This document shows positions 30,395 through 64,000 of a stretch of 64,000 nucleotides of DNA, piece after piece; position 1 is the first letter of the stretch, and the number at the start of each line of letters is the position of its first letter. The position numbers and the translations under genes were made by a program. This stretch comes from a virus. Location: the IMG/VR virus record IMGVR_UViG_3300023502_000001, positions 35,960 through 99,959 of that record. One strand, given 5' to 3'. The notes under the pieces are model-generated. The model was not told where the DNA came from and did not search any database. It saw only the letters and a list, made by a program, of their open reading frames with translations.

Positions 30395-30466
30395 TTGGGC
30401 TACCAGGATTCGAACCTGGACTCTCAGAACCAAAATCTGATGTGACTACCATTACACCATAGCCCA
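30395..30466 (-). tRNA. tRNA-Gln(TTG)
   Basis: acceptor TGGGCTA/TAGCCCA, D GTGTAATGGTAGTCAC, anticodon stem TCAGA/TCTGA, loop TTTTGGT; strongly resembles the CUA suppressor tRNA. Confidence 0.6.
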
Positions 30467-33929: not shown

Positions 33930-34322
33930 TTATAATGAAACCTTATATTTATCCCAATCACTGGTTAATGTCAAGGCTCCTTTAACATTTATTTCACTTG
34001 AGGGAATCTCATACATGTCCCCAGTTATAACTACTACAAATACTACATCACAAGTAGAATTATCAAAATGTCTAATCTTAGAATCTCCAGATGAACCTCC
34101 GCAATTCTTCAACAAGACTTCATAATTTCCACTCTTTACCTAATGTTGAGTAGTTTTAACTGATACTCTCTTCAAACCCTCTTTATCTACTACAATGTCA
34201 TATTTCTATGTATCATTCAAGGGAATTAGGACCGGAATGCAATGAGCAGTATAGTATGCTATAGCTCTTCCTAGTCCTAAATTCCCTTGATGAGATTTAT
34301 ACTAACTTTCCCAAGCGTTCAT
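33930..34322 (-). CDS. hypothetical protein (TAG-recoded)
   Basis: track ORF 33930..34115 extends upstream through 3 in-frame TAGs to MNAWES(Q)YKSH...; about 131 aa; fills a standard-code ORF gap. Confidence 0.5.
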
Positions 34323-35958: not shown

Positions 35959-35964
35959 ATCAAA

Positions 35965-42848: not shown

Positions 42849-43136
42849 GTAACGGTTGTTCTTATCTTGGGAGTAGGAGACCTAAGTCTCCCAGTATGCA
42901 CAATTGTTTCTCAACAACCTGCACCACTATGTACGATAAAAGAAGATGAATTATCCTGTGCCTACAATCATTTAAGATTGTCTTCGATTGTTAGTACAAT
43001 CTCACAATACTTTGCCTTATCTCACGATAAGACACCTCTATTCATAAGAGATGCTCTGCATTAGTCTCAGGGCGTACCCATTATAATCTTTAACTGCAAC
43101 AGAGTCTACAAGTAGTTGTAGTCCTCAAATACCAAG

Positions 43137-43207
43137 TTCCCCATTCTGGACTCGAACCAGAATCTCCTTCTTTAGAGGAAGGCGCAATAGCATTATACTA
43201 ATGGGGA
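43137..43207 (-). tRNA. atypical tRNA-like gene (anticodon loop CTAAAGA, reads AAA), possible pseudogene
   Basis: acceptor TCCCCAT/ATGGGGA and T-arm TCTGGTTCGAGTCCAGA are good; D-arm weak; A34 is unusual. Confidence 0.3.
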
Positions 43208-43929
43208 AATCCTATCTTGACAACTAGTATAAGATAGGAGATTATTTAGTATGTTTTCCAGACATACAACGTTATCAACGTTCACTAAATTCTGAGGTAG
43301 CTAATCTCAAAACTTGCGAATAGATTCGAGATGGAAAATGACGCCTTATGAGCGTCTCTCTTACTATCTAGCCTATATCTATCTGATGGCTTACTTCAGG
43401 CAACTTCCAATATTGCATACGAATACTTATAGGTGATATACTTTGGTCTACCAGCATATCAGTGGTACTTTGTAATATTGCCATAAGTGACCATTCATAT
43501 GGCTCAATCCTCTTGTAATAGTGTTCAAGTTTGCGAATATACACATTACAATCGTAGCAGTTATTTTCGGATATTGGGTTCTTCTGCGTAACCCGCTTTT
43601 TGTTACCTTTTTATAGGCAAATGTTAGAGTAAATAATCATTGTAGTATGTGTTATAAAACTCATCCTACTGGCGATTTTTTGAGAACTGGAGAAAGTCGG
43701 AAAATCGGCTGTCTTTTGCGTGGACAATTTCTCTCAGCCCTTACCATATTTTCACGTGCAACAATAGTCCCAATCTACATTAGAACCACATTACTTAATA
43801 TAATACTAAAATAAAATAACTACGACGAATTGATTTTGAAGTTTTTGTTTTGTTTTGTTGTTTTCTCCGTTAACCAATGGTCCGATGATGGAGTTCATGT
43901 GGGTATCTTATTTTGAAACCCATAATACC

Positions 43930-44130: not shown

Positions 44131-44181
44131 AACTACAAAGACTATTTGTATTTAAAAGAAAGGGGATTTCTCCCCAATCTT

Positions 44182-45053: not shown

Positions 45054-45461
45054 ATGATTACAGACTTAGAAACTTTGTTAAATTAGGATGAGTTTAAAGA
45101 ACTCGTTAAAGCAATTAATTAGAATCAAGAGTTTTATTGTTCAAAAAAAGGACTCACCATTAAATCAGAGTCTACTGATGATTCTCTATTCTTATTAATA
45201 TCCTATGATAGATAGGAAGAAGAAAGTTGTTTAGCGAACAAGGAAGCAGATACATTCCAAAAATATCTAGAATCTTTAGATGATGATTTATTTGTAGGAG
45301 TATGTGAATATTTGGGAGAAGATAATATTCATAGAATACAAGCATGTTTAGAGAGTGGTAAACTAGAAACAGTAAGAAGTGGGATTGCTAAGTTTAGAGA
45401 AGCTCTATCAAAATTAGTTAATCAACAAATTGAATATTTAAAATCATTGCTAAATGTATGA
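45054..45461 (+). CDS. hypothetical protein (TAG-recoded)
   Basis: hand-called ORF MITDLETLLN(Q)DEFKELVKAIN(Q)NQEF... with 3 in-frame TAG, ends TGA; first gene of plus-strand block. Confidence 0.45.
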
Positions 45462-45594
45462 ACAAATAGCTCAAATAAGAATACTTCTTGCTAACTTGAA
45501 TACTACTATGCAAGCATTATTCCAAGAAAATGAATAGCTAAAGAAAGAACTAGAGAGACTAACAGAAGAAAACAAATCTCTAAAGGAGAAATAA
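45454..45594 (+). CDS. small coiled-coil protein (TAG-recoded)
   Basis: about 46 aa with heptad-like LKKELERLTEENKSLKEK, 1 in-frame TAG. Confidence 0.3.
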
Positions 45595-45598
45595 ATAC

Positions 45599-45670
45599 TG
45601 CCCTATGGTGTAATGGTCAGCACAGATGACTCTAAATCATTTAGTCTGGGTTCGAATCCTAGTAGGGCAA
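45599..45670 (+). tRNA. suppressor tRNA, anticodon CTA (reads TAG), Gln-derived
   Basis: hand fold: acceptor TGCCCTA/TAGGGCA, discriminator A, D-arm GTGTAATGGTCAGCAC, anticodon stem GATGA/TCATT, loop CTCTAAA (C34 T35 A36), T-arm CTGGGTTCGAATCCTAG; near-identical architecture to tRNA-Gln(TTG) at 30395..30466. Confidence 0.75.
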
Positions 45671-45687
45671 CTCCAAAATTAATAGCT

Positions 45688-45915
45688 ATGATAAAATTAA
45701 ATGAGAATTATGCAGTAACTCCAACTGGAGCTAAAACCCTCATTATTGAAGAGGGAGATGATTGGAATAAAGTTTGTGATAAGGTAGTTGGATGTAGGTT
45801 CGATTACATATTTATACCTCAAGAATTTGAGAATCAAGCCTGCTACTTTCTTCCACAAATAACAGTTCAAGGAAAGCAGATAGGTAAAATATGTACTTAT
45901 AAAGTAGTAAAATGA
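45688..45915 (+). CDS. hypothetical protein
   Basis: track ORF 45613..45915 trimmed to Met at 45688 (MIKLNENYAV...) because the upstream part overlaps the suppressor tRNA. Confidence 0.5.
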   Translation: MIKLNENYAVTPTGAKTLIIEEGDDWNKVCDKVVGCRFDYIFIPQEFENQACYFLPQITVQGKQIGKICTYKVVK

Positions 45916-46226
45916 AGCAATGCGCAGTTGTATTGAATGGTAATGATGTTATCAAGGTTTCCAACTTAAAAAGGAAATATGATAAAATAAAGAATAACCC
46001 TAATATGAAAATATTAGAGGAATGTGATATGGATATGTTAGATGAAAAATACAGCTACTGGAATAGAACTTTAAATAGAAATCCAGAAGAAGAGAAAAAA
46101 GAGGAGTCTAAATTACACCACTTTAGAAATCCCAAAACAGGGTGGTTAATAACTAGCATCTATCCAGACTTGGAAGATTGTAAGAATTATATAAAAGACT
46201 GGAGGGATTATGAAAGAATTGATTGA
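45912..46226 (+). CDS. hypothetical protein
   Basis: 104-aa ORF. Confidence 0.55.
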   Translation: MKQCAVVLNGNDVIKVSNLKRKYDKIKNNPNMKILEECDMDMLDEKYSYWNRTLNRNPEEEKKEESKLHHFRNPKTGWLITSIYPDLEDCKNYIKDWRDYERID

Positions 46227-46391
46227 GAGGTATCACGAACTTACTAATCCGAAGGTAGAATCTTTAGCAAGGGTTACATTAGTACTTATTGAAACCATTA
46301 TTGAAGATATTGAAGAGAACGGAAGACAGAATGAACAATGGTTTCTGGATTACTTAGATAGACTAAATGAACTAAGTGTAACGCATTAAAT

Positions 46392-46631
46392 ATGTGGGAT
46401 AGGGAATTTAAGTTTGAAGTCCTAATTAATGGACAATTATTAAATATGGTAAAGGCTAGTTATTTGGAAAGCATTTTAAAAAGCCTTCCGGAAAATAAAT
46501 CCTTACTAATTGATATATGGAATGTAGTTGATAACTCCGTTAGAAATATAATCAAGAACGGACTATATAAAGATACCACAGTAGAAAAAGCTATAATTGA
46601 TAATACATTTAAAGGATATGATAGACTTTAA
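46392..46631 (+). CDS. hypothetical protein
   Basis: 79-aa ORF. Confidence 0.5.
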   Translation: MWDREFKFEVLINGQLLNMVKASYLESILKSLPENKSLLIDIWNVVDNSVRNIIKNGLYKDTTVEKAIIDNTFKGYDRL

Positions 46632-46824
46632 AAAGACATTAACAAATTTACATGATGAATTTCCAGAATTTGATTTGGATACATTATTCAAAATACTAGA
46701 TGCTATAGTAGAAACTTATACTCCTACAATAAATATTCCAAGTAATATTAGACAACCATCGGATAAACCTTGGTGGAATGATATAAATAGAATCACTTGT
46801 ACTTATAATGCGAAAGTTAAATAA
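46597..46824 (+). CDS. hypothetical protein
   Basis: 75-aa ORF. Confidence 0.45.
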   Translation: MIIHLKDMIDFKKTLTNLHDEFPEFDLDTLFKILDAIVETYTPTINIPSNIRQPSDKPWWNDINRITCTYNAKVK

Positions 46825-47118
46825 AAATAGGCGAACCTAATCTCTAGGCTCGCCTATTTTGTTATATGATATAATACCAATCAGTTCTCTCCATAACTCC
46901 TTTTTCTCGGAGCTATTTATTATCCAAATGATAATCCCCATTTCTAAAGTTCAATTCCTATTTATTATAATCCCAATAAAAATATCCCTTCCAGCCTGGA
47001 AGTAGTAGAGTACGACCAGTAGCTGCATGTAAAGTTGCTTTGTTATAGTCCATGTTACTTTTTAAATATAAATAGTAAATACAGATATATTCTCAATACA
47101 ATCTCTTTAATGCACTTA

Positions 47119-47470
47119 ATAATGTTTTTCATCGTTTCTTAGTTTTAATAAATCCATAATTTCCTTTCTTTAATCTAGTAGTAGGAATCCATCCATTATC
47201 TAATATAGACCTATGCCCTCCTGGTTTGTGTATCTTAGCTCCGTCTTCGTGTTTCCATTTAGAAGCATTTCTAGCAAAATTAGCTCGCTTCTTCTAAAGA
47301 GGAGTAGCTTTAGGATTATTTAATACCTTTGTAGCGTGCTCTTGCACTGATTCTCCTGCAGCTTTAGCCGAGGCTGTAAATTTGCCTCTGTTCTCTTTCT
47401 TAATATGAATGCCTGATCCATTCTTGAAAATAGGACATCCAAATGTTGTAATTTTTCTACTGTTAGACAT
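47119..47470 (-). CDS. basic hypothetical protein (TAG-recoded)
   Basis: hand-called 117-aa minus-strand ORF MSNSRKITTFGCPIFKNGSG...KATPL(Q)KKRANF..., one in-frame TAG; fills ORF gap. Confidence 0.45.
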
Positions 47471-47584
47471 TTTTAATATAATGTATTATTTATTGATTTG
47501 TGTCTTACAAAGAATATTAATATACTTGAAAAGTATCAAATAAATATAGATAAATGTGATAAATGATTAAATGAATTATGACTA

Positions 47585-48499
47585 ATGGACAAAAGTAAAA
47601 TTACAAAACAAAATGGGAACATAGCTTTCGAGGAGGAGGCTCATATTTATTATGATGTTACAGAGCCTGAACAGAAATTTATATCTGTGACGACTTTAAT
47701 ACATTCTTTCACCCAACCCTTTGACAAAGAGTTCTGGTCAGCCTATAAAGCATTAGAGAAACTTCTGTCTAAAGAAGATTGGGCTATTGAGAAAAAGTCA
47801 TTACTGAATACTAAGAAATTTGACAAAGTTCTACTTGAGCTTCATAACATTACAGAAGACGAGTTTAATAAGGAACAACAAGCTATCTTAGATGCATGGG
47901 ATTTAGAGAATAGGAACTCTTGCGAAAGAGGAACTAAGATTCATGCAGATTTAGAAAACTCTTTTTACAAAAAGAAAAAGAACATAGACCTTAGTAAATA
48001 TCAAATAGGTGGCAAGTTTGAGTGTGTAAAAGACCATAATGAATTAGATTTAGAGAATGGGGTATATCCTGAGTATTTAATATCTAGAGTATCAGAAGAT
48101 GGGAAACTTAGAATAGCTGGACAAATCGACTTGCTAGTTAAAAGAGGTAACAAGATAATTATAGGAGACTGGAAAACCAATAAGAAGATAGAAACTAAGA
48201 GTTTCTTTAATTCTAAAACTAAATCATCAGTTAAGATGAAATATCCTCTAAATAATTTAGATGATGTTAATTATTGGCATTATGCACTTCAATTAAGTAC
48301 TTACGCCTGGATGATACAAAAAAAGAATCCGGAGTTTGAGATTGAAGATTTAGTATTGGTTCACTTTGATCACAGTGATAATATGACAGTATATCATCTA
48401 CCTTACCTAAAAGATGAAGTAATTAGAATGCTGTTGTTTTATAAAAAAGAATCTGTACTAGCTGAAAACAAAAGAAAACGTCAACGTATTGAATATTAA
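47585..48499 (+). CDS. PD-(D/E)XK nuclease-family protein (putative)
   Basis: 304 aa; ...GQIDLLVKRGNKIIIGDWKT resembles the D...(D/E)xK core of RecB/YqaJ-like nucleases. Confidence 0.5.
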   Translation: MDKSKITKQNGNIAFEEEAHIYYDVTEPEQKFISVTTLIHSFTQPFDKEFWSAYKALEKLLSKEDWAIEKKSLLNTKKFDKVLLELHNITEDEFNKEQQAILDAWDLENRNSCERGTKIHADLENSFYKKKKNIDLSKYQIGGKFECVKDHNELDLENGVYPEYLISRVSEDGKLRIAGQIDLLVKRGNKIIIGDWKTNKKIETKSFFNSKTKSSVKMKYPLNNLDDVNYWHYALQLSTYAWMIQKKNPEFEIEDLVLVHFDHSDNMTVYHLPYLKDEVIRMLLFYKKESVLAENKRKRQRIEY

Positions 48500-48501
48500 T
48501 T

Positions 48502-48717
48502 ATGACATTAGAAGAAATTGAAGAACGGTGGAAAATATGTAGACGATGTCCTATATGCGACCAAGATAATGGATTATGTAATGGAAATTTATATCTAAAT
48601 CCAAAAAATAATGATATAAGTATAGGACCAAAAGAAGGTTATATAAAAGGATGCGGATGTCTACTAGAGAAGAAGATTCCAAACGAGAAAAAACATTGTC
48701 CTGCAGGGAAATGGTAA
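48502..48717 (+). CDS. zinc-ribbon protein
   Basis: 71 aa; CRRCPIC ... CGC ... HCPAGKW. Confidence 0.5.
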   Translation: MTLEEIEERWKICRRCPICDQDNGLCNGNLYLNPKNNDISIGPKEGYIKGCGCLLEKKIPNEKKHCPAGKW

Positions 48718-49034
48718 TGTACGGAACTCCCGTACTGTATAGACCTGATAAGGCTTACGTACTTACTTATCAGGAAACAAAAGAAGAAAATAAAGAAGAT
48801 ATGACAGAAAAATGGATTAAGGCAATATTTACTAAGCCTCTAACAATATTAAAGAGTATATATTTTAATATATTTGGAATAAATCAAGATTTAGCAACCA
48901 AGAGATTAAAGATTTGTAATACTTGTCCTCACAAGTTATATACTTCTGTTGGAGAAGTATGTGAGGAATGTGGTTGTATATTAGAGAATAAAACTAGAAT
49001 AGAAGATGAACATTGTGATTTATGTAAATGGTAA
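48711..49034 (+). CDS. zinc-ribbon protein
   Basis: track ORF 48651..49034 trimmed to Met after the upstream stop; CNTCPH...CEECGC...HCDLCKW. Confidence 0.45.
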   Translation: MVMYGTPVLYRPDKAYVLTYQETKEENKEDMTEKWIKAIFTKPLTILKSIYFNIFGINQDLATKRLKICNTCPHKLYTSVGEVCEECGCILENKTRIEDEHCDLCKW

Positions 49035-49042
49035 AATGAATT

Positions 49043-49768
49043 ATGGAAAATTTAAGAACAGAATTAAACAGTAACGAGAAACTAGCCTTATCTTTGACCG
49101 GAATGGAAGGAACAGGAGAACACTTTATTTTAAATGGTGAAGCTGCAGATAAGACATTACTTAGAGAGAAACAAGAAAGATTTAATACAGCGGTAGATGA
49201 AATAGAAGATAAATTCTCAAAACATAATAAGGCTTTAGAGGATTACGCTAATTCATTATCAGAAGATATGAATGGTGTAGAGATTATGCCTATGTATGGA
49301 TATGCTCTTATCAAGCCGTTTGAACAGAACCCATTCCAAAAAATTAAGACTACTAAATCAGGATTAATTACAGACTTAGGAGGGTTTGCTCCAACATACA
49401 AGTCTAACGAGACTGGAGAAATTGAGGAAGAACAACAGTTTATCAAGGTAGGTACTGTAGTAGAGGTAGGTCACAAGTGTGAGTTCTTAAAGCCTGGTGA
49501 TATTGTATTCTATACTATAGCTAGTGAATGTATGGTTCCATTTTACAAACTAGGATTCGTAGTAGTTAATGAGAATAGAATCATGGCTGTAGTTAATGAG
49601 AAACTAACTGAAAGAAGAGACCAAATTAAGCAATCTCAAGATTGTATAAATGTAGATATAGATAAGATCCCAAAAGAGCTTGGAGATAGCTTACCTGAGA
49701 GAATAAAGAATTGGATGGAATACAAAAAGATAGGAATTAATTTACTTAGAGAAGATGGAAACAATTGA
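49043..49768 (+). CDS. hypothetical protein
   Basis: 241-aa ORF. Confidence 0.6.
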   Translation: MENLRTELNSNEKLALSLTGMEGTGEHFILNGEAADKTLLREKQERFNTAVDEIEDKFSKHNKALEDYANSLSEDMNGVEIMPMYGYALIKPFEQNPFQKIKTTKSGLITDLGGFAPTYKSNETGEIEEEQQFIKVGTVVEVGHKCEFLKPGDIVFYTIASECMVPFYKLGFVVVNENRIMAVVNEKLTERRDQIKQSQDCINVDIDKIPKELGDSLPERIKNWMEYKKIGINLLREDGNN

Positions 49769-49979
49769 TGAGAAAGTTTATTTCAAACCTGGGGATTGTG
49801 TTACTTTACGGTAGTGTAAGGTAATGCATTCTCCAGTAATGCTTGTTCTGAGAAGAGAATCAGCATTATTTAAAGATAACCAGGGATTGCGCGGACTTAG
49901 ATGTAGATGGTTTACTGATTCTGGACTGATGCAAGAAGCAGTATTTAATACAAAAGACTTAATTAAAGTAGAAGAATAA

Positions 49980-51193
49980 TGGCGAAAATACAATTTGATC
50001 CAGAGTTAATGTAGCATATCAAGACTATATATGGAGACGCAGAGTTAGACGGAAGAACTTTACAACAGTTGCATTAGACTTGGCAAAGTAATCCGAACTC
50101 TATTAGAAATACTGCATAGTAGAAGAAAAGAAGTGCTGTGCCAGCTATACAACAAAAACCTATATTAGGATTAAAGCTGTCTACTCCTACTATTCCTAAA
50201 AAAATAAATGCACCTTAGCAACAAATTCAAAACGACGACTTAAGAGGAGTCTAGGGGTTTGGTACGGCATTTAGAGAAGCCAGAAAGAGAGGACTAACTC
50301 AATTCAAATGGGGGAAAGGAGTGTATGGAACATAGTTAGCTAATGGAAAGAAAGCAACAGTAGAGGTAGGAACTCCAGTAATGAATAATCCCTATGTTAC
50401 ATATAGTCAAGACGGAAAAAGAGCTACTACGTACCAAAATCAAGTAGACTAGGAAACTGGAGAGCATACTGGAACTATCCAAGAACAATGGATAAAGCCG
50501 CCTACAACTAATATGTATGGGCAGAAACTAACTCCAGAATAGCTCAAAAATTAGAGAAGTTGGGAACATATACCAAAGGCAACTGCTAGATAGCAACGAG
50601 TTAAATATCAACAAGGAGGAGCAATGGCTAATTAGGAAGAATTACAAAAAGCATTTATGGCATACTTAATACAGGATGCCGCAGCACAAGGAATACAATT
50701 ACAATCTGAGTAGGATTTAGAACAATATGCTCAGCAATTAGGAGAAGACGGAATTAAAGCCAAATACCAGGAATTTATGCAAAAAATGCAAGGTGGGGTT
50801 ATGGCTAGATTAGGAGCTAAGCTTGAGTACTATAAAAAATTAAAAGGAGTTTGCCCAGAAGGGGAAGAGCTTGTTTATTTTAAACAAGGAGGGAGAATAT
50901 GTAAAGCCTGCCAGAAAGCTTAGAAAGGTGCCAAGGTAAAAGGTAACGAGGTAGACAAATTTAAGAAAGGAAGAGCACAGTATAAGAAAGATATGAAATC
51001 AGCGAAAGATGAAGCTTCTAGAGATTCTATATCTATTAATAAGTATAATGATTAGGAAACCATGTCTAATAAAGGACATAAAGGAAACTTCCAAAAGGGA
51101 AAATGGGTTCCTGATAGAAAGCAATATACTAAAAAGGATGCTTGTGGCTCTAAAATGAAAGTAAGCAAGTGTGGCTCTAAAATGAAGAAGTAA
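49980..51193 (+). CDS. Gln-rich hypothetical protein (TAG-recoded)
   Basis: about 404 codons open when TAG is sense (about 17 in-frame TAGs), terminated by TAA; MAKIQFDPELM(Q)HIKTIYGD... Confidence 0.6.
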
Positions 51194-51226
51194 GAAAAGA
51201 TTGTCGAATGTTAATGATTAATGATT

Positions 51227-51817
51227 ATGAATGTATTTAACTATAACACTTTAACTAAATAGTTAGAAATAAATGAACCAGAGATTCTTCTAGTTAAAGA
51301 GTTCAAAGCTTTACTACAAAGAGATAAATCTGTGGAAAAGGATAGAGCAATTAGAGAACTATCATACATTTATTTAGCTATTGATTGGAAGAGTCCGTAT
51401 AGCTAGTACTCTGAATATGAAAGGCACGATGAAGCAATTAATGATTCTGGATTAACAGAATCAGAATTTAATGATCCGATATTTAGGGAAGCATGTAGAA
51501 AATATAGAGCATTATAGGACTCAAATAAATCAATTAAATTATTAGAAGCTGCTAGAAGAGCTGCTGACTAGTTTATTGATTACTTCGATACTATTGTAGA
51601 CTTAAATGAACGTGACACTAATGGAAAGCCAGTATTCTCTGCTGAGAAAGTAATGAAGGAAATGGCTAGCCTTCATAAAGTTCACGAAGAATTAATTACA
51701 TTAGAAGATGAGGTTAAAAAAGAACTTACTGAATAGTCTACCGTTAGAGGAGGGGCTACAGATGGTTTTGATCCCGGAGAATTTTAATTATGCCAAGAAA
51801 GAAAAAGATATTACCTG
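51227..51817 (+). CDS. hypothetical protein, possible terminase small subunit by position (TAG-recoded)
   Basis: about 196 codons, 4 in-frame TAGs, ends TGA; directly precedes the terminase large subunit. Confidence 0.45.
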
Positions 51818-54150
51818 ATGAACTATAGACTATAGTAGATTAGGTAAGAGAAAAAGAACATAAAGAAGATGCTGTAGAGGCAAGAGAGCTAGTATAGAAA
51901 ATAAGAGAAGAAAGGGTCAAAAGTGCAGACTATTGGGATGTCAAGAAAGGAGACAAGATAGATGTTTTTGACCCTACTTTGTCTTATGAGATAACTGGCT
52001 ATAGACCTATTGATGAAACGCATGGTTTGGACTTTAATCCCGAATGGTTCACCGAAACCAGAGAAGTATACAGAAAGACTGGGAAGTATTGTCCCTACTT
52101 AAAAGACAGTAAGAGATACAATGAATTTTGGAAAGAGTAGTACAGAAGATGTAAATATGGAATGACAGTTAATGGTTATACTATTACTGGAGATAACTAT
52201 TTCTTCTTAAATTTCTATTAGCTTCCTATTATTGATGATAATAAAGCATCCGGTGAAGGAACTAATAGTGACTTCCCTATATTCTTTGCATCCCATTACA
52301 TGTTCTTCCATTACTTACAAATGGCTAGAGTACTACATAGACATGCAGCTTTAATGAAGGCTCGTTCAATCGGATTCTCAGAAATAAATGCCTCACTATC
52401 CGCTCGTATGTATTCTGTAATTAGAAGAAGTAGAGTAATGATTACTTGCTTTAATGATACCTTCCTTAAAGGTACATTTAGTAAGTTTGATAATGCTCTA
52501 ACATTTTTAAATACTTGCACAGGTGGAGGATTCTTTAAGCTTCGTCTAATTGACCAGGATTTAAGAAAGAAGTCTGGTAAGTAGGTTAAAGTAAACGGAT
52601 AGTTTGAAGATGTTGGATTTAAATCAGAAGTAGTAGGAATAAATGGAGCTAAACCATCTAATATTCGTGGAGACCGTGTTGACTTATTAATATATGATGA
52701 AGCAGGGTCTTGGCCAGGATTAGATACTGCTGTGGTACAAGGACAAGAACTTTGTGAAGTCTAGGGTAAGCCTCGTGGAACAATGTTGTTTGGAGGTACT
52801 GGTGGTGATATGGGTGCTCCATTAGCAGGTCTTAAAAAGATTTACTATAATCCAAAAGCTTACAAAGTTCTTCCCTTTAGACATAATTATACTCAAGATG
52901 GGACTACTATTGAGAGTGGATTCTTTATTCCATATTTTGTACAGTCTTTGAACTCCGAATACATGGATCATAGAGGTGTATGTAATACCGTAGAATATAA
53001 GAAGTATCTGTAGGAAGAAAGAGATAATCTATTAGCAGTACCCGATGACTATTTAAAGAAGTGTGCTGAACGTTGTTGGAATGCAGAAGAGGCCTTCAAT
53101 CTAGAAGGTGTTAACAAGTTTAACAAAATTCTTATTTCTGATCAATTAGCTAATATAAGACTAAAGAAAATAGGTCCCAGACCAGAATGTGGTTATATAG
53201 ATTACTTCTATAAAAATAATAAACACACTGCTGATAACATTGATGGATTTAAGTGGATTCCTAATACTAAGGGAAAGGTAAAGATTCTGGAACATCCAGT
53301 ATGGTCTGACCTATATAAGGAGTAGATGGATAAACTTAGATAGGAAGCAGAGGAAAGAGGAGAGGAATTTGAAGCACCTGTATATAAAGAAATGCATAAT
53401 CTTTATATTGCAGGAATAGACGGTATTGATATAGGAGCTAATTAGACCTCAAAGGAAACTAAAGATCCTTCTGACTTCTGTATAACTATTAAGAGAAGGG
53501 CATTTGGTATGAGTGAGCCATAGTATGTAGCAATGTATAAGGACAGACCTGGAGACATTCGAGAGGCTTACAAAATAGCTATGTGTTTACTTAGATACTA
53601 CAACTGTAAGGTAAATATAGAAGCAACCCGTGTTGGTATGATTACCTGGGCTAGAGAAAAGAAATGTTTGAATTACTTTATGAAACGTCCTAGAGCTACT
53701 CTTACTGATGTTAAAAATGGAACTACTAAATAGTATGGAACTCCAGCTACTAAAACTATTATAGAACAACACACTGATCTAACTGCTGCGTTTGTGGAAG
53801 ATTATTGTCATACTATATGGTTTGAAGAAATGTTGGAATAGCTTACTGGATATAATGACGAGAATAAAGGTAAGTTCGATATTATAGCAGCTATGGGTAT
53901 GACAGAATTAGCAGATGAAGAGTTGTCTGGAAGATAGCCTATAGTTGTGGAAAAAGAAGTTGAATTGTTCAGGGATTTTGGTTATTATTACGATGAGAGA
54001 GGAATAAAAAGATTTGGAGTTATACCAACTAGCGAAACTCCAGAATTAAATATGCAAGACGACGAATACGATGACCCATACAGAATTGAAACAAGTGATC
54101 CTAGAGTATATGAGAGACTTATACCAAATGGAATATATAGGCGGACTTGA
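51790..54150 (+). CDS. terL: terminase large subunit (TAG-recoded)
   Basis: about 786 codons in one frame joining track ORFs 52300..52584, 52783..53013, 53533..53733 and 53947..54150 through in-frame TAGs; ATPase-like RGDRVDLLIYDEAGSW and nuclease-like LYIAGIDGIDIG / DIIAAMGM segments. Confidence 0.6.
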
Positions 54151-54347
54151 GATTGAGGATTTGAATCCAGTTGGTTACAAAATATCTTTTAACTTTGACA
54201 GGTCTGAGATGCCATTAGTAATCATAGCTGATTTACCCGATGATGAATTTCTGCCTTTTATTAAAGAAGAATTAAGAAGTAGGAAGTTATAGAGAGTTAA
54301 GTATTATAACGCCACTAAGCTTCCTCCAGAACAACATAATACATGTT

Positions 54348-56519
54348 ATGAAAGAGAAAGAATTGATAGACAAAACAAACGAGGCTATTGCGGAACTTGT
54401 GTATGATAAATATGAGCTTTAGAAAGCTTATAATTATTATAATGGTAAAAGAGATCCAGAATAGTTTCGCTATCTTGAAGAGAATTTTGGAATAGGCAGT
54501 CCTACATCAGTAGAATTTACACCACTACTTAAGAAGCATGTAGATGCTTTAGTAGGGGAATATCTAGGAACTCCAATACTCCCGAAAGTCTCTTGCAAAG
54601 ATTCAGATACTATCAGTAATATAACCAGAGAAAAATAGCTAGAGATAACTAAAGGAATAGTTAAGTTTTTAAAAGATCACTTAAGTAATGCTATCTTAAG
54701 CTTTATTGACGGAAAAGATATTACTGATAAAGCTGTAAAGACTCAGCTAGATAAGGTTATATAGGATATTGATTAGTCATTCATTTCTCAGTATGAAATT
54801 GCTGCGCAGAACATTATTCACTACCTAATGCAATCTAGGGAAACTGATCTTATTACTAAGTTGCGGTAGTTATTAACTGACTTACTAATTACTGGATACA
54901 CATTCTTTAGAGTAAAGTCTTCTTTCTCCGGAACTAATGTGGAGATAGAGGTTCTTAACCCGTTAAATACGTTTGTTGATAGAAATCCAGAATCTCCATA
55001 TGTCAAGAAATCATATAGAGTTGTTATTAGAAAATGGATGAGTAAAAGCCAAATACTAGCTAAGTATGGTAAAGAAATATCTAGAGAAGACTTAAAGAGG
55101 TTAAAAGATGAATGGAGAGCAGATGATTCTGCTGCTGTATACAGAAGAGTTTATGGAGATGTTTGTACAGTGGTTAATGAAGATCAAAATCATGAGACCA
55201 TTCCTGGGTATCCAGATAATGAATATAGTGCTCATAGATTTTAGTTAATTCCGGTCTACGATGTAGAGTGGATAGAGACTGATGATGATTTCAAAATGCA
55301 GAGATACAATACTATAAGGATAGGAGAGGAAATCTATATTCTTAGAGGATTAGACAAGACTGCAATGAGGTCTAAAGACGATCCTAACTCTTGTTCATTA
55401 TCAGTAAATGGAGTTTATTTTCTAAATCGTTCTCAGTAGCCATATTCTTTAATACTTAAGTGTGCACATCTACAGGATAGATATGACTTACTTAACTACT
55501 ACAGAGACAACTTGATAGCTAATAGTGGAACCTCAGGAGTTATTATGGATATGTCATTACTTCCTACTAACTTAGGAGTGCATTGGCCAGAAAGAGTATA
55601 GAAATGGTTAGCTTATAAAAAGGGTGGTATTATGTGGATTGATTCCACTTAGGAAGGAAGAAATGATGGAGCGCAGGCACCTAACTAGATATACAATGGA
55701 TTTGATGATACCCTTAAAGCGTAGGCTGTATAGGCTATTGAGTTAGCTATTCAATCAGTAGAATAGACTACATCATCTATAACTGGAGTATTTAGGGAAA
55801 GACTTAATGGAATAGAGACTCATGATGCTGTAACTAATATTAAGCAAGGAGTAGCTAATTCTTATATAGTAACTAAACACTACTTCCAACAAATGGATTT
55901 AATAACTTGTGAGATATTGTTGGATAGTCTTAATCAGGCTAAAGTAACTTACAAGAAAGGATTAACTGGAACCATTATATTAGGAGACAAGTATTAGCAG
56001 ATATTTACTGCACTTCCTGAATATTTCACAATGACTGATTTTGATATTCATATAACCTCTAGCACTGAAGTTATGGAAGATCTATAGACTATTAAAGCTA
56101 TGATTCCAGAGTTCCTTAAGAGTTAGTAGATGGATGCTGGTATAGTTTTTGAAGCATTAACAGCTAAGAGTTTAACAGACTTAAAGTATAAGGTTAAGAA
56201 AGCTATGTAGGTTTAGAAGGAAGAGAACAATCAATTACAATAGTTGTAGCAGAAGTTGGAGGAAACTTCATAGCAAGCACAACAATTACAATAGGAATTA
56301 GAAAAAGCTTAGTAGAAAATAGAGAGGTTAGATGAACAAAAACTTGGACTAGAGCAATAGAAAATGCAACTCGAATACAAGGTTAATTGGCTTAAAGCCC
56401 AATCAGATTCTACTTATAAAGATAGACAAATGGATATTGAAGAGAAGAGAACTGAAATAGAATTAGCATAGCTTCATGATGGAAATCCATATAACGATAA
56501 AATAAGACAAATACATTAA
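54348..56519 (+). CDS. portal protein (putative, by size and position; TAG-recoded)
   Basis: about 723 codons in the frame of track ORF 54939..55244, many in-frame TAGs, ends TAA; follows terL. Confidence 0.45.
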
Positions 56520-56520
56520 T

Positions 56521-57390
56521 ATGGCTACAGCAGGTACAATAGTATATAATAAAGATTAGCAACAAATATATCCAGTTTCTCATGCAGAGGTGGTAATTAG
56601 TAATGCTTCTGGAAGTAAGTCAGACGTGGAAGACAACCTTATAAAATTATGGAAAAAGGTCTCAGAATTAAGTGGAGACTAGGAAGCAGCTAGTAATATC
56701 ATGGTAGTAGTTACTTATTGTAAAACAAATACCAGAGATGAATCTGAAGTAAGAAAGTTATCATCATGGAGTGATATTTTTGAACTACCAGACTCAGAAA
56801 GACCATATGTTTGGAAGAAAACTTTATATACATATAAAGGAGACACAGCTAAACTTAATGAGATTTACGAAATTGTTGCTACAGATATTGCTGAAAAAAT
56901 TCAGAATATCTATATTGCAAGATCAACTGGGGTTGCTCCAGTTATTACTTATCCAATACTAACGGATGGATATGGAGATCCTATATTAGACTCTGAAGGA
57001 AATACTTAGGAAGATTTGACTGCTTTTGATAAAAAATTACCAGAAGGCTGGTCAGAAACTCCAGTTAGTATTGGTCCAGCTACTCCATATGTATTTATAT
57101 CAACACGTAAGAGAGTAGAAGGATTATGGAAAAGATATTCTGAACCAGCTCAATACGGTAGGTGGGCATTCGACAGTTAGTTAGAGTTACGATATACTAT
57201 TACTTCTGGAGATAAACCAGCTGTTAATACTACAAGTGATGATCCAGGAAGTTAGTGGTCTAGTGATACTCCAGATAGTTTTACTGGAAAAATGTGGATG
57301 ATTACTGCAACATCAGTAAATGGAGTATTGAATAGTGATGAAAACAACGTTAGATGGCATGGTCCTCATTTGATGTCAATTATACAATAA
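56521..57390 (+). CDS. virion-associated hypothetical protein (TAG-recoded)
   Basis: about 289 codons incl. track ORF 56701..57009; stop overlaps next start (TAATG). Confidence 0.5.
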
Positions 57391-58121
57391 TGGAATTTAG
57401 TATTGATATACATACCCAGATTACTGGGGAAATAACTATTGAAGACTTCTCTAAGGAATATGGATAGTATATTGATGAAGATTTAGAAGTAGTAACCTCT
57501 TACGACTCTTATAAGTACAGTGAGAGTGCTACTCTAAATACTATCATCAAGGTAAGTATAGGAGATGCCACATTAATAGATGTCCTTTTAAATGACCATA
57601 CAGAAGATTTAGATTCCTGTACATTTAAAGTAAAAGAGGACGGATATTATGTGGTAGATCATATAATACTTCCTAATATGAAGTGGTATGAAAATTCATC
57701 TGATGAATATAAGGAATACTACGAAACTATCTATGTTACAGATGGGGAGAAACTATATAAAGAAGTAGAAGGAGAGTTAGAAGAGTGTACAGTAAAGGAA
57801 ATTCTAGAAAGAAACATAGAAGGCACTACTATCAAGAAATGTAAGGTCGATGTATTCTTTACTGGGAATTTACAATAGTGCTATATTAATTATTGTAAAA
57901 AATTATTTGATGGTCTCCTAAATAAATGTGTTACCAATGAACATGAGGCAGATATTTTTGCTAGAGATTTTATTTGGATGACTCTCAACATTATAGATTA
58001 TTTAATAGGCTTTAAACAATTCATGGAAGCCGAAAGATTGCTAGCAATGTTCCGCACTTGTGGAGGATTCTGTAACACTCGCTATCATGGACATAAACAT
58101 ATAAGTTGTGGATGCTCTTAA
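57390..58121 (+). CDS. hypothetical protein (TAG-recoded)
   Basis: about 243 codons incl. track ORF 57651..57878; C-terminal Cys/His-rich tail. Confidence 0.5.
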
Positions 58122-58276
58122 AAGAAAGGCTATTAAAAGGTACGAAGAGTTTCTTGGAAGAATTAAGAAAGGATATAGACCAGATTATCAAGATATTTTG
58201 AATTTAATCTGTTTTATTAATCTACCTGTAAAACTAGATAATCACGAATTTATTAAATAGCAACTATTAAATCATA

Positions 58277-59866
58277 ATGATACAGCCTATTTACACTTCG
58301 GTAAGCAATGCTGATATAAAGCCTTGTGGAAAGAAAGGACATTTAATAAAAAGTGAGCCTATACCACTTCTAAGAGATAATTACTTAGGAGAATATAGAA
58401 CAGAACTAGAAAGAGCTAAGGTTAGAAAAAACTTAGGAATTGCTGATGAGTAGAGTCTTCTTTGGGGAAATATTAGTGGAACCATAGAGGCTTAGAAAGA
58501 CTTGGTTTAGTATATTGAACAAAAATGGACATATACTAGCGATGTTGCAGAAAATATTAACACCGTAAAAGATGCATTAGACTATGCATTATTTTTTATT
58601 AGTTAGTATGAGGCTAATACTGAGGAAATAGAAGAGATAAAGGTTGATATAAGTAATATTAGGACTAGTATTTAGGTATTAGGAGAAGATCTGAAAAGAG
58701 AGATTGATACTAATAGGGAAGGACTAAATAACTTATCTTAGGATATAATCGAAATTAATTAGGCAATATCAGACCTCAACACTGCTATAGAAAATATAGA
58801 TGTTGATAAGAACATTCTTAATTGGATTAAAAACAACCTTTAGAACTCTAAGACTGTAGAGATAAAGGAGGATAATACTATAGAAGTCATTCTTTCTAAG
58901 TAGGATAATAATGCTATTCATTTAATCGAATAGGAATTACCTCCTACAGAAGAAGGAGAGGAGCCTTCTACTATAACCCTTCCAGGAATTTATGTAAAGA
59001 ATCTAGAACCTTAGTTAGAAGAAGCTTAGAAATCTATAGGAGAAGTATAGAAAGCTCAAGAAGAGACTAATGAAAAGGTTAGCACTAATAGCGAGAGTAT
59101 TACAAATATCTAGACTAGTCTAGAAACTATAGCTACCTATTAGACAGAACTTCCTGATGATACAACTTCTACTGTTATAGAAGGTACTACCGTTGAAAAA
59201 TTAAAAGGGAAACCATTTAATGAAATCATAGATACTTTACTATTCCCAACAGTAGTTAGAGATTTAATATATCCATAGTTGTATTATAGCTTTGCTTCCC
59301 AAATTGTGGAAGTAGGAACTGCGCTACTAACTCCAACCTTAACTTTCGTAAAAAATGATGCAGGAGAAGAAACTGACAGAGAAGAAGTCATTACTTATAA
59401 CGGTTCTCCTATAGAGTCTGTTACATATGATTCTATTGGGATTTATACTCATTCTGGTACAGTGAATTATGCTGCTGGAGAATACTTAGTAAACAATAAG
59501 GGAGAAGTTACAGATAAAAGGGTGGAAGCTGGTTCTATATCAGCAACTGCACAAGTAACAGCTACTTATCCTTGGTATTCTGGAAATACTGATGGATTGA
59601 TAAAATAGTCCCTAGTTCCATTTAATTAGGCTTCTGGCACTATTACATTCTCATTAAGTGGTAAGGCTATTATAAAATTACCAGGAAGTAATACTCAGCT
59701 AAATTCCTTCACAGTAGATGGAGGATTGGGATATTTGAATGTCGATTTAAATGGTTGGGAAGCTTCTACTGAACAAATAAATGGATTCCCATATAAAGTA
59801 TGGACTAAGAAGGATACCTACTCTTCAGCACTGCCTCACCAAATTAACTTTATTCTATCACAGTAA
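58277..59866 (+). CDS. tail fibre-like protein (coiled-coil N-terminus; TAG-recoded)
   Basis: about 529 codons incl. track ORF 59279..59608; extended Q/E/L-rich heptad region then beta-rich C-terminus. Confidence 0.5.
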
Positions 59867-61734
59867 TGGCATTTAAATATACAGGTGATGCTACCCTAGG
59901 TGTTGGTTTAACCGTAGAAACTCCGAAGCCTCTGGATAATAGAACAGTAGTTGATAACCTAGAGGAGCTATATTCTATTCCAGAGAAATATGCTTATCAG
60001 GGCATGACCGTATCTAATATAGATAACGGAAATATTTATATGCTTATTGATAAGTCCAAGATTAAATATAAAGAAGGATGGAAAGCATCTTATGAGTCTA
60101 TCCAGATAATAGCTTGTACAGAAGCTGAATATAAAGAATGGTCTGCTAATACTACAGAAAACTTTAAACCAATAGATGAGAGTAAAACATATCTTCATGC
60201 TGAAACATATTATTATATATATGAGGACAGCCTAGATGATAATTAGTTTTATCTATCAGCAGAATGGGGTAAGAAAATAGAAGAGTAGTTAAAGTAGAAA
60301 GCTCTTAATACTACAGTTGTATAGATTAGAAATGATCTAGACCAGACTATTTAGAATCTTTCTAAGTATGCAACATTAGAAGAATTAACTGCCAACTATG
60401 CTCCTAAGACAGACCTAGATTTGGAAGATCCAGAATCCCTTTTATCTAAAGCTTTATCTAATCACTATACTAAGTAGGAAACAGATGATATATTTGTTAC
60501 TAAGGAAAGTCTTAGAGGAGAAGGAATGGAAGGAGATGATTTCGTCTTTGTTACTAAAAAACAATATGACGAAGACTAGTAGGCTATCCAGAGTGAATTA
60601 GATAAGACTTTAAAAGTAGATGGGGATGGTTCTCTAGAAAGTATTACTGTAGGATAGATAAAATCTCCAGTAATTGAAGGAGAGGATTAGTTAGTAGTAG
60701 ATGTTAAATCAGACGGATTGTTTGTTGGAGAAGATCAATTTGCTATGATGTCTGATGTTCCAAATTTAGTTACATTAACTGAAGAGGAATATTTAAAACT
60801 GGTAGAAGATGGTACTCTAGAACCTGACACATACTATTATGTGTATGACGTGACAAATGACGCTAAAGTCTATATTACTAAAGAGTATCTAGATTAGAAT
60901 TACCATACTACTCATTAGTATTAGTCATGGGTAGCTACCAACTACTACTCAAAATCTCAGATTGATGAGATCGTTGCTGGTTTACAGAAACTTGGGAGCT
61001 ACGTCACTACAGAAGATATTAAAGCATATTACACTAGTCAATAGGTAGATGAAAAGTTTCTTACAAAAGAGAATGCTCAATCTACATACGCTACCTAGCA
61101 GTCGTTAACTGAGCTGTCTGGATAGATAGCAGAAGAGTATGTAACAAAGGATAGTTTGAGAGGAGATTCTCCCGAGACTGGTGATGATGACTTTATATTT
61201 GTTACTTAGAATAAATATCAATAGGATTAGACTGCTGCTTCCCAAGAATTTAATACTAAGCTATTAAAATCAGAATAGATAGAAACTTCTGACATTACTA
61301 TTTAGAAAATTGTAGAAAAAGAAGTACAATAGGGAACAACTGAAGAAAGTCCAGGAGATATAGTAATAGAGCAAACTATTGAAAGCTCTGTTAATCTTAC
61401 TACTAAAGATAATAGGTTATTAGCATCAGGTAAACAAGTTGCTCTTATTGAAGAAGTTCCAAAATTAGTATGTTTACCTTAGACTGATTATGATAACCTA
61501 GTTGAAAATAATAAGACAGAGAACGATACTTATTACTGTACTTACGGAGAAAAAGATATATAGGATACAGGATATGTTAGAAGCGAATATCTTACTGAAA
61601 AGTACTATACTAAAGCAGAGGTAGAAGCTTTGATACAGGAAGCTGTAAGCGAATTATAGAAAAAGATAGATGCAATATAGCCTGGTTCGGGCAGTGCATC
61701 AGTAGATGAATCAAATGAACAATTAATATTTTAA
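59866..61734 (+). CDS. tail fibre-like protein with two tandem repeats of about 120 aa (TAG-recoded)
   Basis: about 622 codons incl. track ORF 59866..60246; repeated blocks KESLRGEGMEGDDFVFVTKKQYDEDQ... and KDSLRGDSPETGDDDFIFVTQNKYQQDQ... Confidence 0.5.
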
Positions 61735-61739
61735 ACAAG

Positions 61740-61949
61740 ATGGGAACAATTTATATTGACGGACAGTTTAAAAGCTCTGCTAAGCCTGTAAAAGTTGTTG
61801 GTGGCAGTGTAGGAGGGTCTGGAGTAGATCCTGATACTCTCAAGAACTATGCTACTAAAGCAGAACTTCAGAAAGCTGTTGAGGACTTAACTGCTTCCAT
61901 AGAAGGAATAGATCATGATGTAGTTGAAGAAACTTTAATAATATAGTAA
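61740..61949 (+). CDS. small hypothetical protein
   Basis: track ORF 61740..61946 reads through TAG to TAA. Confidence 0.4.
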
Positions 61950-61950
61950 T

Positions 61951-63771
61951 ATGGCAGCTATCAAATCTATAAAGGTAGGAGAAATTACATACGACTTAAA
62001 GGCTACTTATGATGGTTCTGGCAACAATATTGCCGAGACCTATGCTAAATCTAGTGCTATTCCGACTAAAGTATCATAGTTAAGTAATGATAAAAACTAC
62101 CTAACAGAACATTAGGACATTAGTGGTTTAGCAACTAAAGAATAGATAGACGAAAAAGTAGACAAGGAATTAGGAAAAGGTCTTTCTGAAGCTAATTATA
62201 CTGAATTAGAAAAATAGAAGCTTTAGGGTGTAGAAGATGGTGCAAATAATTATGAACACCCAACTACAGCAGGATACAAACATATTCCCTCTGGAGGAGC
62301 AGCAGGATAGATTTTAACTTATTCTAATGATGGTACTGCCCAATGGGCAGATTCTAGCACTAAGTTAGATTAGCAATTCTAGGCACTTAATGAGGCTTGG
62401 GAAGAACTTCAGAAAGCTTAGCAAAATTTAGATAGCTAGGTAACAGCTATGACTAGTAACGCAGATCTTTACTCCTATGGAGTAGAATGGGATATAACTG
62501 TATCTTCTCCGGTTCTCACCAGAATTGGAAACCCGTTACTGCATAAATCACTTCCTATTCAATCTGCTTATAGAGGATGCGTAGCCAATGAAGCTAATAT
62601 AAACTATTTCTTACATCCAGATAATTGGGCTTATAAGGAAGACGGTACTACTCCCTCTGTGCTTGATGGTAGTGAAGGAACTGTTAGGGTTAACACTCCT
62701 AAGTTCTATGGTAAGTCTGGTTCCAATGGAAATAAAAGATGGGTAAGAGAATCAACTGTTAAGATAGACGACTCTTGGGTTGAAATACCGGAATTGTTAA
62801 TTGATGCATATAGAAGCACAGTTGATACTACAGTATCTGCAACTCCAAAGGCTGTATCAGTAGTTAATACTACTACAGCATTTAGAGGAGGTGGAAATAG
62901 AGCATAGTTCGACGAGTACTTGACTACTGAGCTGGAGACTAAAGATATTTTCAGAAGCGACTTAGGAAAACCAAGAACGAATATTTCCAGAGCCACAATG
63001 AGAACTTATGCTACAAACGCAGGTTCTGAATTACTATGTTACGAATATTACAAGTGGATATTCTACTGGAATTATGTAATAGAATATGCTAACTTTAACT
63101 CTTAGGCTACATATGAGGCAGAGCTTACTGCTGATGGCTATCATTAGGGAGGTCTTGGACCCGGAGTTACGGATTGGAGTAATTCTGCCACAAGTTGGTC
63201 TGGATATAACGGAACTTATCCTCTTACTCCATGCGGTCACTGTAACGATATTGGTAACTTCACAGGAGTTAAAGATTTAGTTATCCCAGGATGCACTGCA
63301 ACAGATGGGACTAGTATAGTAGCTACTCATACCTTTAAAGTACCACGTTGGAGAGGCTTTGATAATCCATTTGGAGACATTTGGACAAACCTAGATGGAG
63401 TAGTTATTCAAAGAACTGCAGCGAATGAAATAAGTAGTGTATATACTACCACAGATAAAGCGGAGTTTACTGACGTAATTGGCAACAAGACTATAGCCGG
63501 ATACGAGGTAGCACAAGATGGATACATTAAAGAGTTTGATTTAGGAAAGACAGCGGAGATTATACCATCTTCTTGTACTGGAGCTTCAATTACTACTTAT
63601 ATGTGTGACTACCACTATTGTAACGCTAGCTCTACAGCGCTTCGCACGCTGCTGGTGGGCAGCAGCGCGATTAGTGGCGGCTTTGCGGGTCTCGGCTATT
63701 TCTATTCTAACTTTGGCGTCGGCGCTGCCAATTCCAATGTCGGGTTCAGAACTCTAAATAGAGTATCTTAA
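61951..63771 (+). CDS. tail fibre protein, DGR target (C-terminal variable region; TAG-recoded)
   Basis: about 606 codons incl. track ORF 62449..62907; collar-like motif YEHPTTAGYKHIPSGGAAGQILTYSNDGTAQWA; C-terminal 99 bp form the VR of a DGR. Confidence 0.65.
63649..63747 (+). repeat. DGR variable repeat (VR)
   Basis: 99-bp match to 63852..63950 with 21 mismatches, every one opposite an A in the downstream copy. Confidence 0.75.
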
Positions 63772-63851
63772 GATATAAAAATATAAAAAATCAGTTTAGA
63801 TAATAAACTGTAGGATATTACTTCTAAAAACCGTTGATTGGCAAAAAAGAA

Positions 63852-63950
63852 CTGCTAGTAGGCAGCAACGCGAATAATGGCAGCAATGCAGGTCTCAGCT
63901 ATTTCAATTCTAACAATGACGTCAGCAATGCCAATTCCAATGTCGAGTTA
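63852..63950 (+). repeat. DGR template repeat (TR)
   Basis: non-coding copy downstream of the target gene; adenines at all 21 variable positions; would encode an Asn-rich (AAY) peptide, as is typical of TRs. Confidence 0.75.
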
Positions 63951-64000
63951 TTATATATTTAGAAACAATTTTAATTTTTACCTTATTTAGTTTGCTAAGT

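Follow-up and report, generated by a model that had tools for sequence, protein, structure and literature searches.

The Zeta group of crAss-like phages, as defined by Yutin et al. (2021, PMC7886860), has genomes of 145-192 kb rich in tRNAs, suppressors among them, and in introns and inteins; TAG or TGA recoding affects late genes for the most part. The name 'Echekviridae' was proposed for the group, and one of its subgroups includes ctoVY1, cthgQ11 and 3717_85572, with genomes of 182-189 kb, 24-27 tRNAs and about 34.6% GC; these phages have a CTA tRNA, amber suppression and a diversity-generating retroelement (DGR) with a 414-aa reverse transcriptase (RT) acting on the tail fibre, and DGRs are known in Zeta crAss-like phages (Babkin et al., 2025, PMC12386605). 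In crAss-like and Lak phages using genetic code 15 (TAG to Gln), structural and lysis genes are recoded as one contiguous unit, and a temporal-switch model has been put forward (Borges et al., bioRxiv 10.1101/2021.08.26.457843). Here, a 64-kb stretch of viral DNA (IMG/VR record IMGVR_UViG_3300023502_000001, positions 35,960 to 99,959; called the window below), about one third of a phage genome of ~185 kb, was analysed for the use of TAG as a sense codon in its packaging, portal and tail genes. TAG is very probably a sense codon for Gln in the genes of 49755-63771, in a small upstream gene (orf135) and in three endonuclease genes of this large crAss-like phage, with TAA and TGA alone as terminators; the late timing of the block is deduced.

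Open frames with TAG as a sense codon

Calling of open reading frames (ORFs) with code 11 gave only plus-strand fragments between 49.98 and 63.77 kb, the longest of 152 aa, as an earlier note on this DNA had described from the letters alone. Stop-free frames of at least 200 aa covered 4.5% of positions 49980-64000 under code 11 and 90.8% when TAG was read as sense. Control readings with TGA or TAA as sense gave 4.5% and 11.3%, respectively. The gain of about 20-fold, obtained with TAG only, is a large and TAG-specific effect, and the comparison of coding density that the note had proposed thus came out in its favour.

With TAG as sense, nine plus-strand genes of 404, 188, 786, 723, 289, 255, 529, 622 and 606 codons were obtained; their in-frame TAGs are listed gene by gene in Table 1. 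Across the 4402 codons of these genes, TAG was found in frame 128 times and TAA and TGA not once, while the two off-frames of the same genes held 407 TAA and 246 TGA. Because TAA and TGA are that abundant off frame, chance is excluded as the source of this pattern. All nine genes terminate in TAA or TGA, so the statement that dozens of in-frame TAGs occur in genes ended only by the other two stops stood. Seven of the nine codon counts given beforehand were also recovered; the remaining two, 196 and 243, differ from our 188 and 255 by the choice of start codon, and public gene calls give 243 or 255 for the latter. The code-11 fragments at 52300, 52783, 53533 and 53947 do lie in the single frame assigned to the terminase large subunit (TerL), since their offsets from 51790 (510, 993, 1743 and 2157) are all divisible by 3.

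Translations with TAG as Gln were searched against PHROG. Alignments to TerL, portal and tail families crossed most TAG sites, which is the homology that had been set beforehand as a test. Conserved essential genes are broken by one type of stop only and are full length once TAG is read as sense. Pfam searches with the same translations of TerL, orf404 and the tail protein gave no match and the portal protein matched below threshold only, so PHROGs were needed for these assignments. Among the other genes, orf188 is possibly the small terminase or a packaging partner, as judged by its position, and orf529 and orf622 are probable tail or fibre proteins. A seeming gap of 211 nt before orf404 is filled by orf74, so that no gap separates the recoded block from the TAG-free genes upstream; a 74-aa gene is present in public calls at this site in three relatives (L063, L065 and L066).

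The amino acid at TAG and the suppressor tRNAs

DNA was used for determining the amino acid at TAG, because code 15 may already underlie the protein sequences of database homologs. Sixty related IMG/VR loci with 68-98% TerL identity (tblastn), mostly contigs of 178-193 kb, were codon-aligned gene by gene, with up to 54 distinct relatives per gene. At the columns in which the window has TAG, the relatives had TAG 2391 times, CAA 973 times, CAG 302 times and GAA 198 times, followed by other codons. CAA is two mutations away from TAG, so its presence at these columns is explained by amino-acid conservation and not by mutational proximity. When the genes were re-aligned with TAG masked as X, Q accounted for 57% of the non-TAG residues, followed by E with 12.5%, and was the plurality residue at 73 of 123 TAG columns. 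In the opposite direction, columns with Q in the window had TAG in 33% of the relatives, compared with 2% or less for the columns of every other residue. Many TAG positions are conserved among the relatives. Q or TAG predominated at 13 of the 16 TAG columns of TerL, and those of the portal protein and orf188 were mostly Q.

The Gln content of the late proteins is 5.5% counting TAG and 2.6% without it, compared with 2.9% in early genes, and 52% of late-gene Gln codons are TAG. Taken together, these alignments give good support to TAG as a Gln codon in these genes, and Gln would be the residue inserted at UAG in this phage. The Gln codons at TAG columns agree with the proposal that the locus follows the code-15 pattern of crAss-like phages. 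In two crAss-like phages, TAG was assigned to Q by proteomics (Peters et al., 2022, PMC9523058).

Twenty-seven tRNA genes were found in the window by ARAGORN, two of them with the anticodon CUA (Sup-cta1 and Sup-cta2). The earlier note had noticed a single Gln-like suppressor tRNA; it was right about the likeness, as Sup-cta2 is closest to tRNA-Gln(UUG), but there are two such tRNAs. Sup-cta2 is 73% identical to the tRNA-Gln(UUG) of the window and has in common with it U1:A72, G2:C71, the D-arm, the T-arm and A73. It is present in ~50 of the 60 relatives, 100% identical in most of those with TerL identity of at least 88% and 98.6% identical in four. The body of Sup-cta1 is at most 64% identical to any tRNA of the window and is unlike tRNA-Gln(UUG). 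However, its ortholog in relative L052 has the Gln anticodon CUG, differing from the CUA variant of L014 at position 36 and four stem positions, and among the Sup-cta1 variants both the acceptor stem and the anticodon stem have undergone compensatory changes. Both CUA tRNAs are thus Gln-derived, Sup-cta2 from tRNA-Gln(UUG) and Sup-cta1 from tRNA-Gln(CUG), and are predicted from this ancestry to insert Gln as amber suppressors.

Nonsense suppressors of this kind are known from Escherichia coli, where supE (glnV) is a tRNA-Gln changed from CUG to CUA and supB (glnU) one changed from UUG to UUA; one anticodon change (G36 to A) makes a Gln tRNA suppress amber or ochre codons, with Gln still the residue inserted. 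Just this series of anticodons, CUG, CUA and UUA, is present in the Sup-cta1 family. Unlike supE and supB, which are weak chromosomal mutations, the suppressors here are phage genes needed for about half of the late Gln codons.

Code boundary, timing and rival explanations

The coordinates given beforehand for the recoding were 45054-63771. They hold for the first part, 45054-45461 (orf135, with three TAGs), and for the block that starts at 49755, but not for 45676-49768, in which no gene has an in-frame TAG. Recoding also extends beyond this interval, to three more TAG-containing genes on the minus strand. The genes at 45.7-49.8 kb were TAG-free in nearly all relatives (the exonuclease in 44 of 44), and those from 49979 onward contained TAG in all relatives, except for one relative of orf404; the change of code near 49.76 kb is a conserved feature of the clade. 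The TAG-free state at 45.7-49.8 kb holds down to ~50-70% protein identity, with neighbours on the same strand keeping 1-5 TAG per 100 codons. Off-frame TAG per 100 codons per frame was ~2.7 in early genes and ~3.0 in late genes. Since TAG occurs off frame as often in one gene set as in the other, the in-frame depletion is frame-specific and selected, and strand-composition bias was ruled out as the cause of the TAG-free genes.

The leftward block (1-44.6 kb), which contains accessory genes (NAMPT-like, SPFH, OmpA-like and radical-SAM) and 26 tRNAs, can be read with the standard code. Of its 78 ORFs, about 11 have TAG as their terminator, and TAG-terminated early ORFs had a TAA or TGA at most 8 codons downstream in 8 of 9 cases, compared with 41% of controls (one-sided p = 0.012). 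Recoding is confined to the late genes and the other genes are compatible with the standard code, apart from orf135 and the three endonucleases; no lysis gene was identified in the window. ORFs homologous to orf135 were found in 40 distinct relatives, 26 of them with TAG, and a 135-aa gene is also listed in public gene calls. As for the endonucleases, an analogous recoded homing endonuclease in an early region, there for TGA, has been described (Borges et al., bioRxiv 10.1101/2021.08.26.457843).

How these parts may work together can be outlined as follows. A host with the unmodified standard code could translate the TAG-free genes. In the early phase of infection, RF1 of the host would stop ribosomes at UAG, and neither late proteins nor homing endonucleases would be made (Borges et al.; Yutin et al.). 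Both CUA tRNAs would be charged with Gln by the host glutaminyl-tRNA synthetase, and as they accumulate, UAG would be read as Gln and synthesis of the late proteins would begin. In this view, recoding would serve as a translational timer and might also protect the phage against the host, or sabotage the latter.

Several points weigh against this reading of the locus. Gln makes up 57% and not 100% of the replacements, and the poorly conserved orf289 and orf135 show other residues, with no Gln at the three TAG columns of orf135 in relatives. By its position, orf135, with its TAGs amid TAG-free genes and upstream of Sup-cta2, misfits a simple division into early and late genes. These labels were themselves deduced from gene content and strand, the timing step belongs to the model, and the charging identity of the tRNAs is judged from their sequence ancestry. 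Moreover, neither RF2 nor a Gln-tRNA synthetase was seen among the 20 larger early and middle ORFs scanned, a set drawn from about a third of the genome and leaving small ORFs outside.

If the TAGs were assembly or sequencing errors, or if a defective phage carried these genes as pseudogenes, code-11 frames would be fragmented as observed, and nothing else speaks for this idea. It is refuted by frames that are interrupted by TAG alone and never by TAA or TGA, by the recurrence of these TAG genes in hundreds of independent assemblies as well as in the 60 IMG/VR loci, and by the conservation of many TAG positions; we give it practically no credence. That TAG encodes another or an additional residue (for instance pyrrolysine, Glu, Lys or Tyr), or lacks a single meaning through differently charged CUA tRNAs, is very improbable. 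The divergent body of Sup-cta1 and the second place of E among the replacements would fit such a reading, and ARAGORN labels both CUA tRNAs 'Pyl', but this label is given purely from the anticodon and pyrrolysine was rejected as a candidate; no pyrrolysine-pathway match was found among the ORFs scanned. Substitutions at TAG columns are strongly concentrated on Q, exchange with TAG is restricted to columns of Q, the main replacement is the two-mutation codon CAA, the Sup-cta1 family includes a CUG (Gln) ortholog, and Q is the residue that proteomics gave for related phages (PMC9523058).

The other two alternatives accept TAG as Gln and concern its purpose. Under one of them, code 15 is constitutive and has no temporal role, the TAG-free genes being a historical or compositional accident. 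The location of both suppressor tRNAs at the junction of the divergent blocks, where very early expression is possible, is in line with this, as are the TAG-ended early ORFs, nearly all of which have a nearby TAA or TGA so that read-through is tolerated, and the place of orf135 at the very start of the rightward block. However, the genes at 45.7-49.8 kb are kept TAG-free across relatives next to TAG-rich neighbours, and the equal off-frame TAG of early and late genes indicates a depletion that is selected rather than compositional, which makes a purely constitutive code unlikely. Somewhat less improbable, although still doubtful, is that the suppressor tRNAs mainly damage the host, by read-through of stops and impaired defence proteins, and that late recoding was secondary and then became fixed. 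Host damage was proposed by Yutin et al. (PMC7886860) and Babkin et al. (PMC12386605), and many Zeta phages have a CTA tRNA without recoding (Table 1 of PMC12386605); a UUA variant of Sup-cta1 in some near-identical relatives without TAA recoding of conserved late genes is not explained by decoding alone. Against damage as the main role, TAG represents half of the late Gln codons, so at least one CUA tRNA is indispensable for virions, and the 100% conservation of Sup-cta2 in close relatives fits a decoding role. Host damage and decoding are not mutually exclusive, and late-gene recoding to Gln remains our preferred reading, with or without a contribution of the former.

Associated elements and relation to described phages

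The features of the window are collected in Table 1.

Table 1. Recoded genes, tRNAs and associated features of the 64-kb window.
Feature	Position	Strand	Codons	In-frame TAGs	Match or remark
GIY-YIG homing endonuclease	13015..13650	-		4	PF01541 1.3e-11 (TAG=Q translation); in the standard-code leftward block, adjoins tRNA-Leu
GIY-YIG homing endonuclease, paralog	25794..26429	-		3	PF01541 3e-10; between tRNA genes
tRNA-Gln(UUG)	30394..30466	-			apparent parent type of Sup-cta2
PD-(D/E)XK endonuclease	33930..34322	-		3	PF11645 6e-10; adjoins tRNA-Ser
Sup-cta1, suppressor tRNA, anticodon CUA	43136..43207	-			ARAGORN; Rfam tRNA 56.5 bits; last tRNA of the leftward block
RAGATH-14 RNA (RF03145), full length	43236..43408	-			166.3 bits (gathering score 149.1), E 8e-32
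orf135	45054..45461	+	135	3	upstream of Sup-cta2; no assigned function
Sup-cta2, suppressor tRNA, anticodon CUA	45599..45671	+			ARAGORN; Rfam tRNA 66.3 bits; near the head of the rightward block
TAG-free genes, including PD-(D/E)XK-type exonuclease (47585-48499) and GroES-like protein (49043-49768)	45676..49768	+		0	PHROG matches; two small minus-strand genes embedded; outside the recoded block
orf74	49755..49979	+		1 (codon 20)	translation; first recoded gene of the late block; overlaps both neighbours
orf404	49979..51193	+	404	15	Q/K-rich; no family match (PHROG, Pfam)
orf188	51221..51787	+	188	5	phrog_16390 1.4e-10 (family without known function)
Terminase large subunit (TerL)	51790..54150	+	786	16	phrog_6681 8.3e-63, residues 89-712
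Portal protein	54348..56519	+	723	28	phrog_6547 5.6e-49, phrog_156 5.5e-13
orf289 and orf255	56521..58121	+	289 and 255	5 and 2	structural-block genes without assigned function
orf529 and orf622	58277..61734	+	529 and 622	18 and 26	orf529: weak tail-protein match, phrog_788 2.4e-4
orf69	61740..61949	+		1	TAG is the last sense codon, stop directly after
Tail (fibre) protein	61951..63771	+	606	13	phrog_5302 7.8e-79; 3' end holds the DGR variable repeat
DGR variable repeat (VR), 98 nt	63649..63746				3' end of the 606-codon tail gene
DGR template repeat (TR)	63852..63949

The RAGATH-14 RNA and Sup-cta1 share a strand, with the RNA placed 28 nt 5' of the tRNA, and this adjacency of RAGATH-14 and tRNA (29-83 nt) recurs in the ~185 kb clade. 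The anticodon of the linked tRNA was CUA in 22 related loci, UUA in 9 (L007, L015, L016, L018, L021, L044, L049, L054 and L056) and CUG in L052 (116-186), and the anticodon loop was defective in L010, L011 and L026. One of the UUA carriers, L044, has a TerL 100% identical to that of the window. A general link of RAGATH-14 to suppressor tRNAs or recoding was ruled out, as copies were found in viral contigs of 60-100 kb with no tRNA within 400 nt and no local TAG effect.

In TerL, the portal protein, orf188, orf255, orf529 and orf622 of the UUA carriers, TAA was absent from the reading frame, and recoding of TAA was ruled out for these genes. A few TAA in the relatives' orf289, orf404 and 606-codon tail gene were in both the CTA and TTA groups or at alignment ends. 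For orf289 (56521-57390), alignments to relatives covered ~80% of the query and contained 28 in-frame TAA across 24 loci, of both CTA and TTA type; these are probably an artefact of a gene boundary or domain swap. The ochre-type UUA tRNA occurs even though most genes of the phage end in TAA, and its role is unexplained by decoding alone.

When positions 43044-44671 were compared with 1258-3003 of relative L065, the two were 79-81% identical, while the flanking 19 kb were 98% identical. This divergent segment of ~1.7 kb holds Sup-cta1, RAGATH-14 and two small minus-strand genes, and coincides with the turn of the GC skew at the divergent junction. The comparison suggests that the cassette was exchanged by recombination at this junction. 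RAGATH-14 might act in the expression or processing of the linked tRNA. A bolder idea, to which we give little weight, is that Sup-cta1, RAGATH-14 and the two small genes form a swappable, tunable module that would set which stops are suppressed, ochre included, for the timing of the code switch or for host sabotage. A literature search returned no published function of RAGATH-14 and no report of the anticodon polymorphism of the linked tRNA; only RAGATH-18 has a described function. The anticodon-variable cassette linked to RAGATH-14 and its ochre-type variant are the sole items here that might repay further work.

At the other end of the recoded block, all 18 mismatches between VR and TR of the DGR are at TR adenines. 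The TR is identical in relative L061 and the VR is different. An RVT_1 gene starts ~376 nt after the tail gene in L061 (22358) and L064 (22355), past the end of the window. The target of the DGR is the C-terminus of the TAG-recoded 606-aa tail protein. TerL has an insertion in three relatives (L033, L052 and L059), where the match spans 2.7-3.5 kb compared with 2.36 kb, and the TerL of the window is without it. The insertion carries intein or homing-endonuclease domains (PF05204, PF05203 and PF14528; protein P0003, 1131 aa).

Some further features of the early regions were recorded. On the minus strand at 13791-38770, 25 standard tRNAs are interspersed with small ORFs and the TAG-containing endonuclease genes; the array covers 18 amino acids, without tRNA-Ala and tRNA-Val, and Met, Cys, Gly, Tyr, Leu and Ser are each represented by 2-3 copies. 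Auxiliary genes are sited at 3176-5943, 7075-9353, 31016-32980 and 38823-39782 on the minus strand of the standard-code block. They include a nicotinamide/nicotinate phosphoribosyltransferase (PF04095, PF18127) adjoining a weak PRTase-CE match, two SPFH/Band-7 proteins, an OmpA-like beta-barrel protein and a weak radical-SAM match. A perfect 17-bp hairpin followed by a T-rich tail, like a terminator, is present at 46824-46860 on the minus strand and adjoins the two embedded minus-strand genes. A sigma-70 promoter scan of 42.9-50.1 kb gave 29 sites compared with 32.2 in shuffles; crAss-like phages and Bacteroidota use other promoters, so this result is uninformative on transcription units.

The window is part of a large crAss-like phage genome (relatives of ~180-190 kb), most probably of the Zeta group, an assignment made from the agreement of its features with those tabulated for this group (Table 1 of PMC12386605). 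By tblastn of TerL, the closest named phages were crAss-like, at ~26% identity over ~80% of TerL, and two unannotated 'Bacteriophage sp.' records matched at 44-46%; megablast of the 13.8-kb block against an annotated phage collection gave no match. The exact TerL of the window, translated with TAG as Q, is present in 255 contigs of a public protein collection, in a 90% cluster of 2365 members. ENA gene calls on contigs of 184-190 kb already use code 15 and list proteins of 135, 404, 186, 786, 723, 289, 255/243, 529, 622, 69 and 606 aa. The description of the block as invisible to standard-code ORF calling is thus true for code-11 callers only, and the novelty implied in the earlier note did not hold: the late-gene TAG-to-Gln recoding is correct here but already known, with the lineage, recoding, tRNAs and DGR all published. 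For annotation, table 15 or a multi-code caller (Mgcod) is needed, as TerL, the portal protein and all tail genes are otherwise lost. The locus adds one more well-resolved case in which late genes of an abundant gut phage lineage use TAG for Gln, with a conserved boundary and two suppressor tRNAs, and no new principle.

Compared with ctoVY1, cthgQ11 and 3717_85572, the relatives are of similar size (178-193 kb vs 182-189 kb), the window alone has 27 tRNAs vs 24-27, and GC is ~35% vs 34.5-34.8%. Shared with this Zeta subgroup are the CTA suppressor tRNA, amber suppression limited to TerL and structural genes, a DGR whose RT of ~406-414 aa diversifies the tail fibre C-terminus, a tRNA block amid homing endonucleases, and TerL inteins in some relatives. 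The recoding itself shows no substantive difference, the named genomes being compared by their published description. The table of PMC12386605 lists a single 'CTA' anticodon, with no mention of two Gln-derived CUA tRNAs, UUA variants or a RAGATH-14 neighbour. For the hosts of the subgroup, that paper predicts Prevotella, Phocaeicola and Lachnospira. Accessory factors for the code switch, such as RF2 or an aminoacyl-tRNA synthetase, are optional and known from a minority of the phages described; some Lak and Agate phages encode RF2, and none was seen in the available part of the genome here. Like the ~105 kb code-15 crAss-like phages and the Lak megaphages (Borges et al.; Peters et al., 2022, PMC9523058), the phage studied here combines early genes in the standard code with a phage-encoded CUA tRNA. 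It differs from the ~105 kb code-15 crAss-like phages in belonging to another lineage (TerL ~26% identical to that of cultured or curated crAss-like phages) and in having a genome about twice as large.

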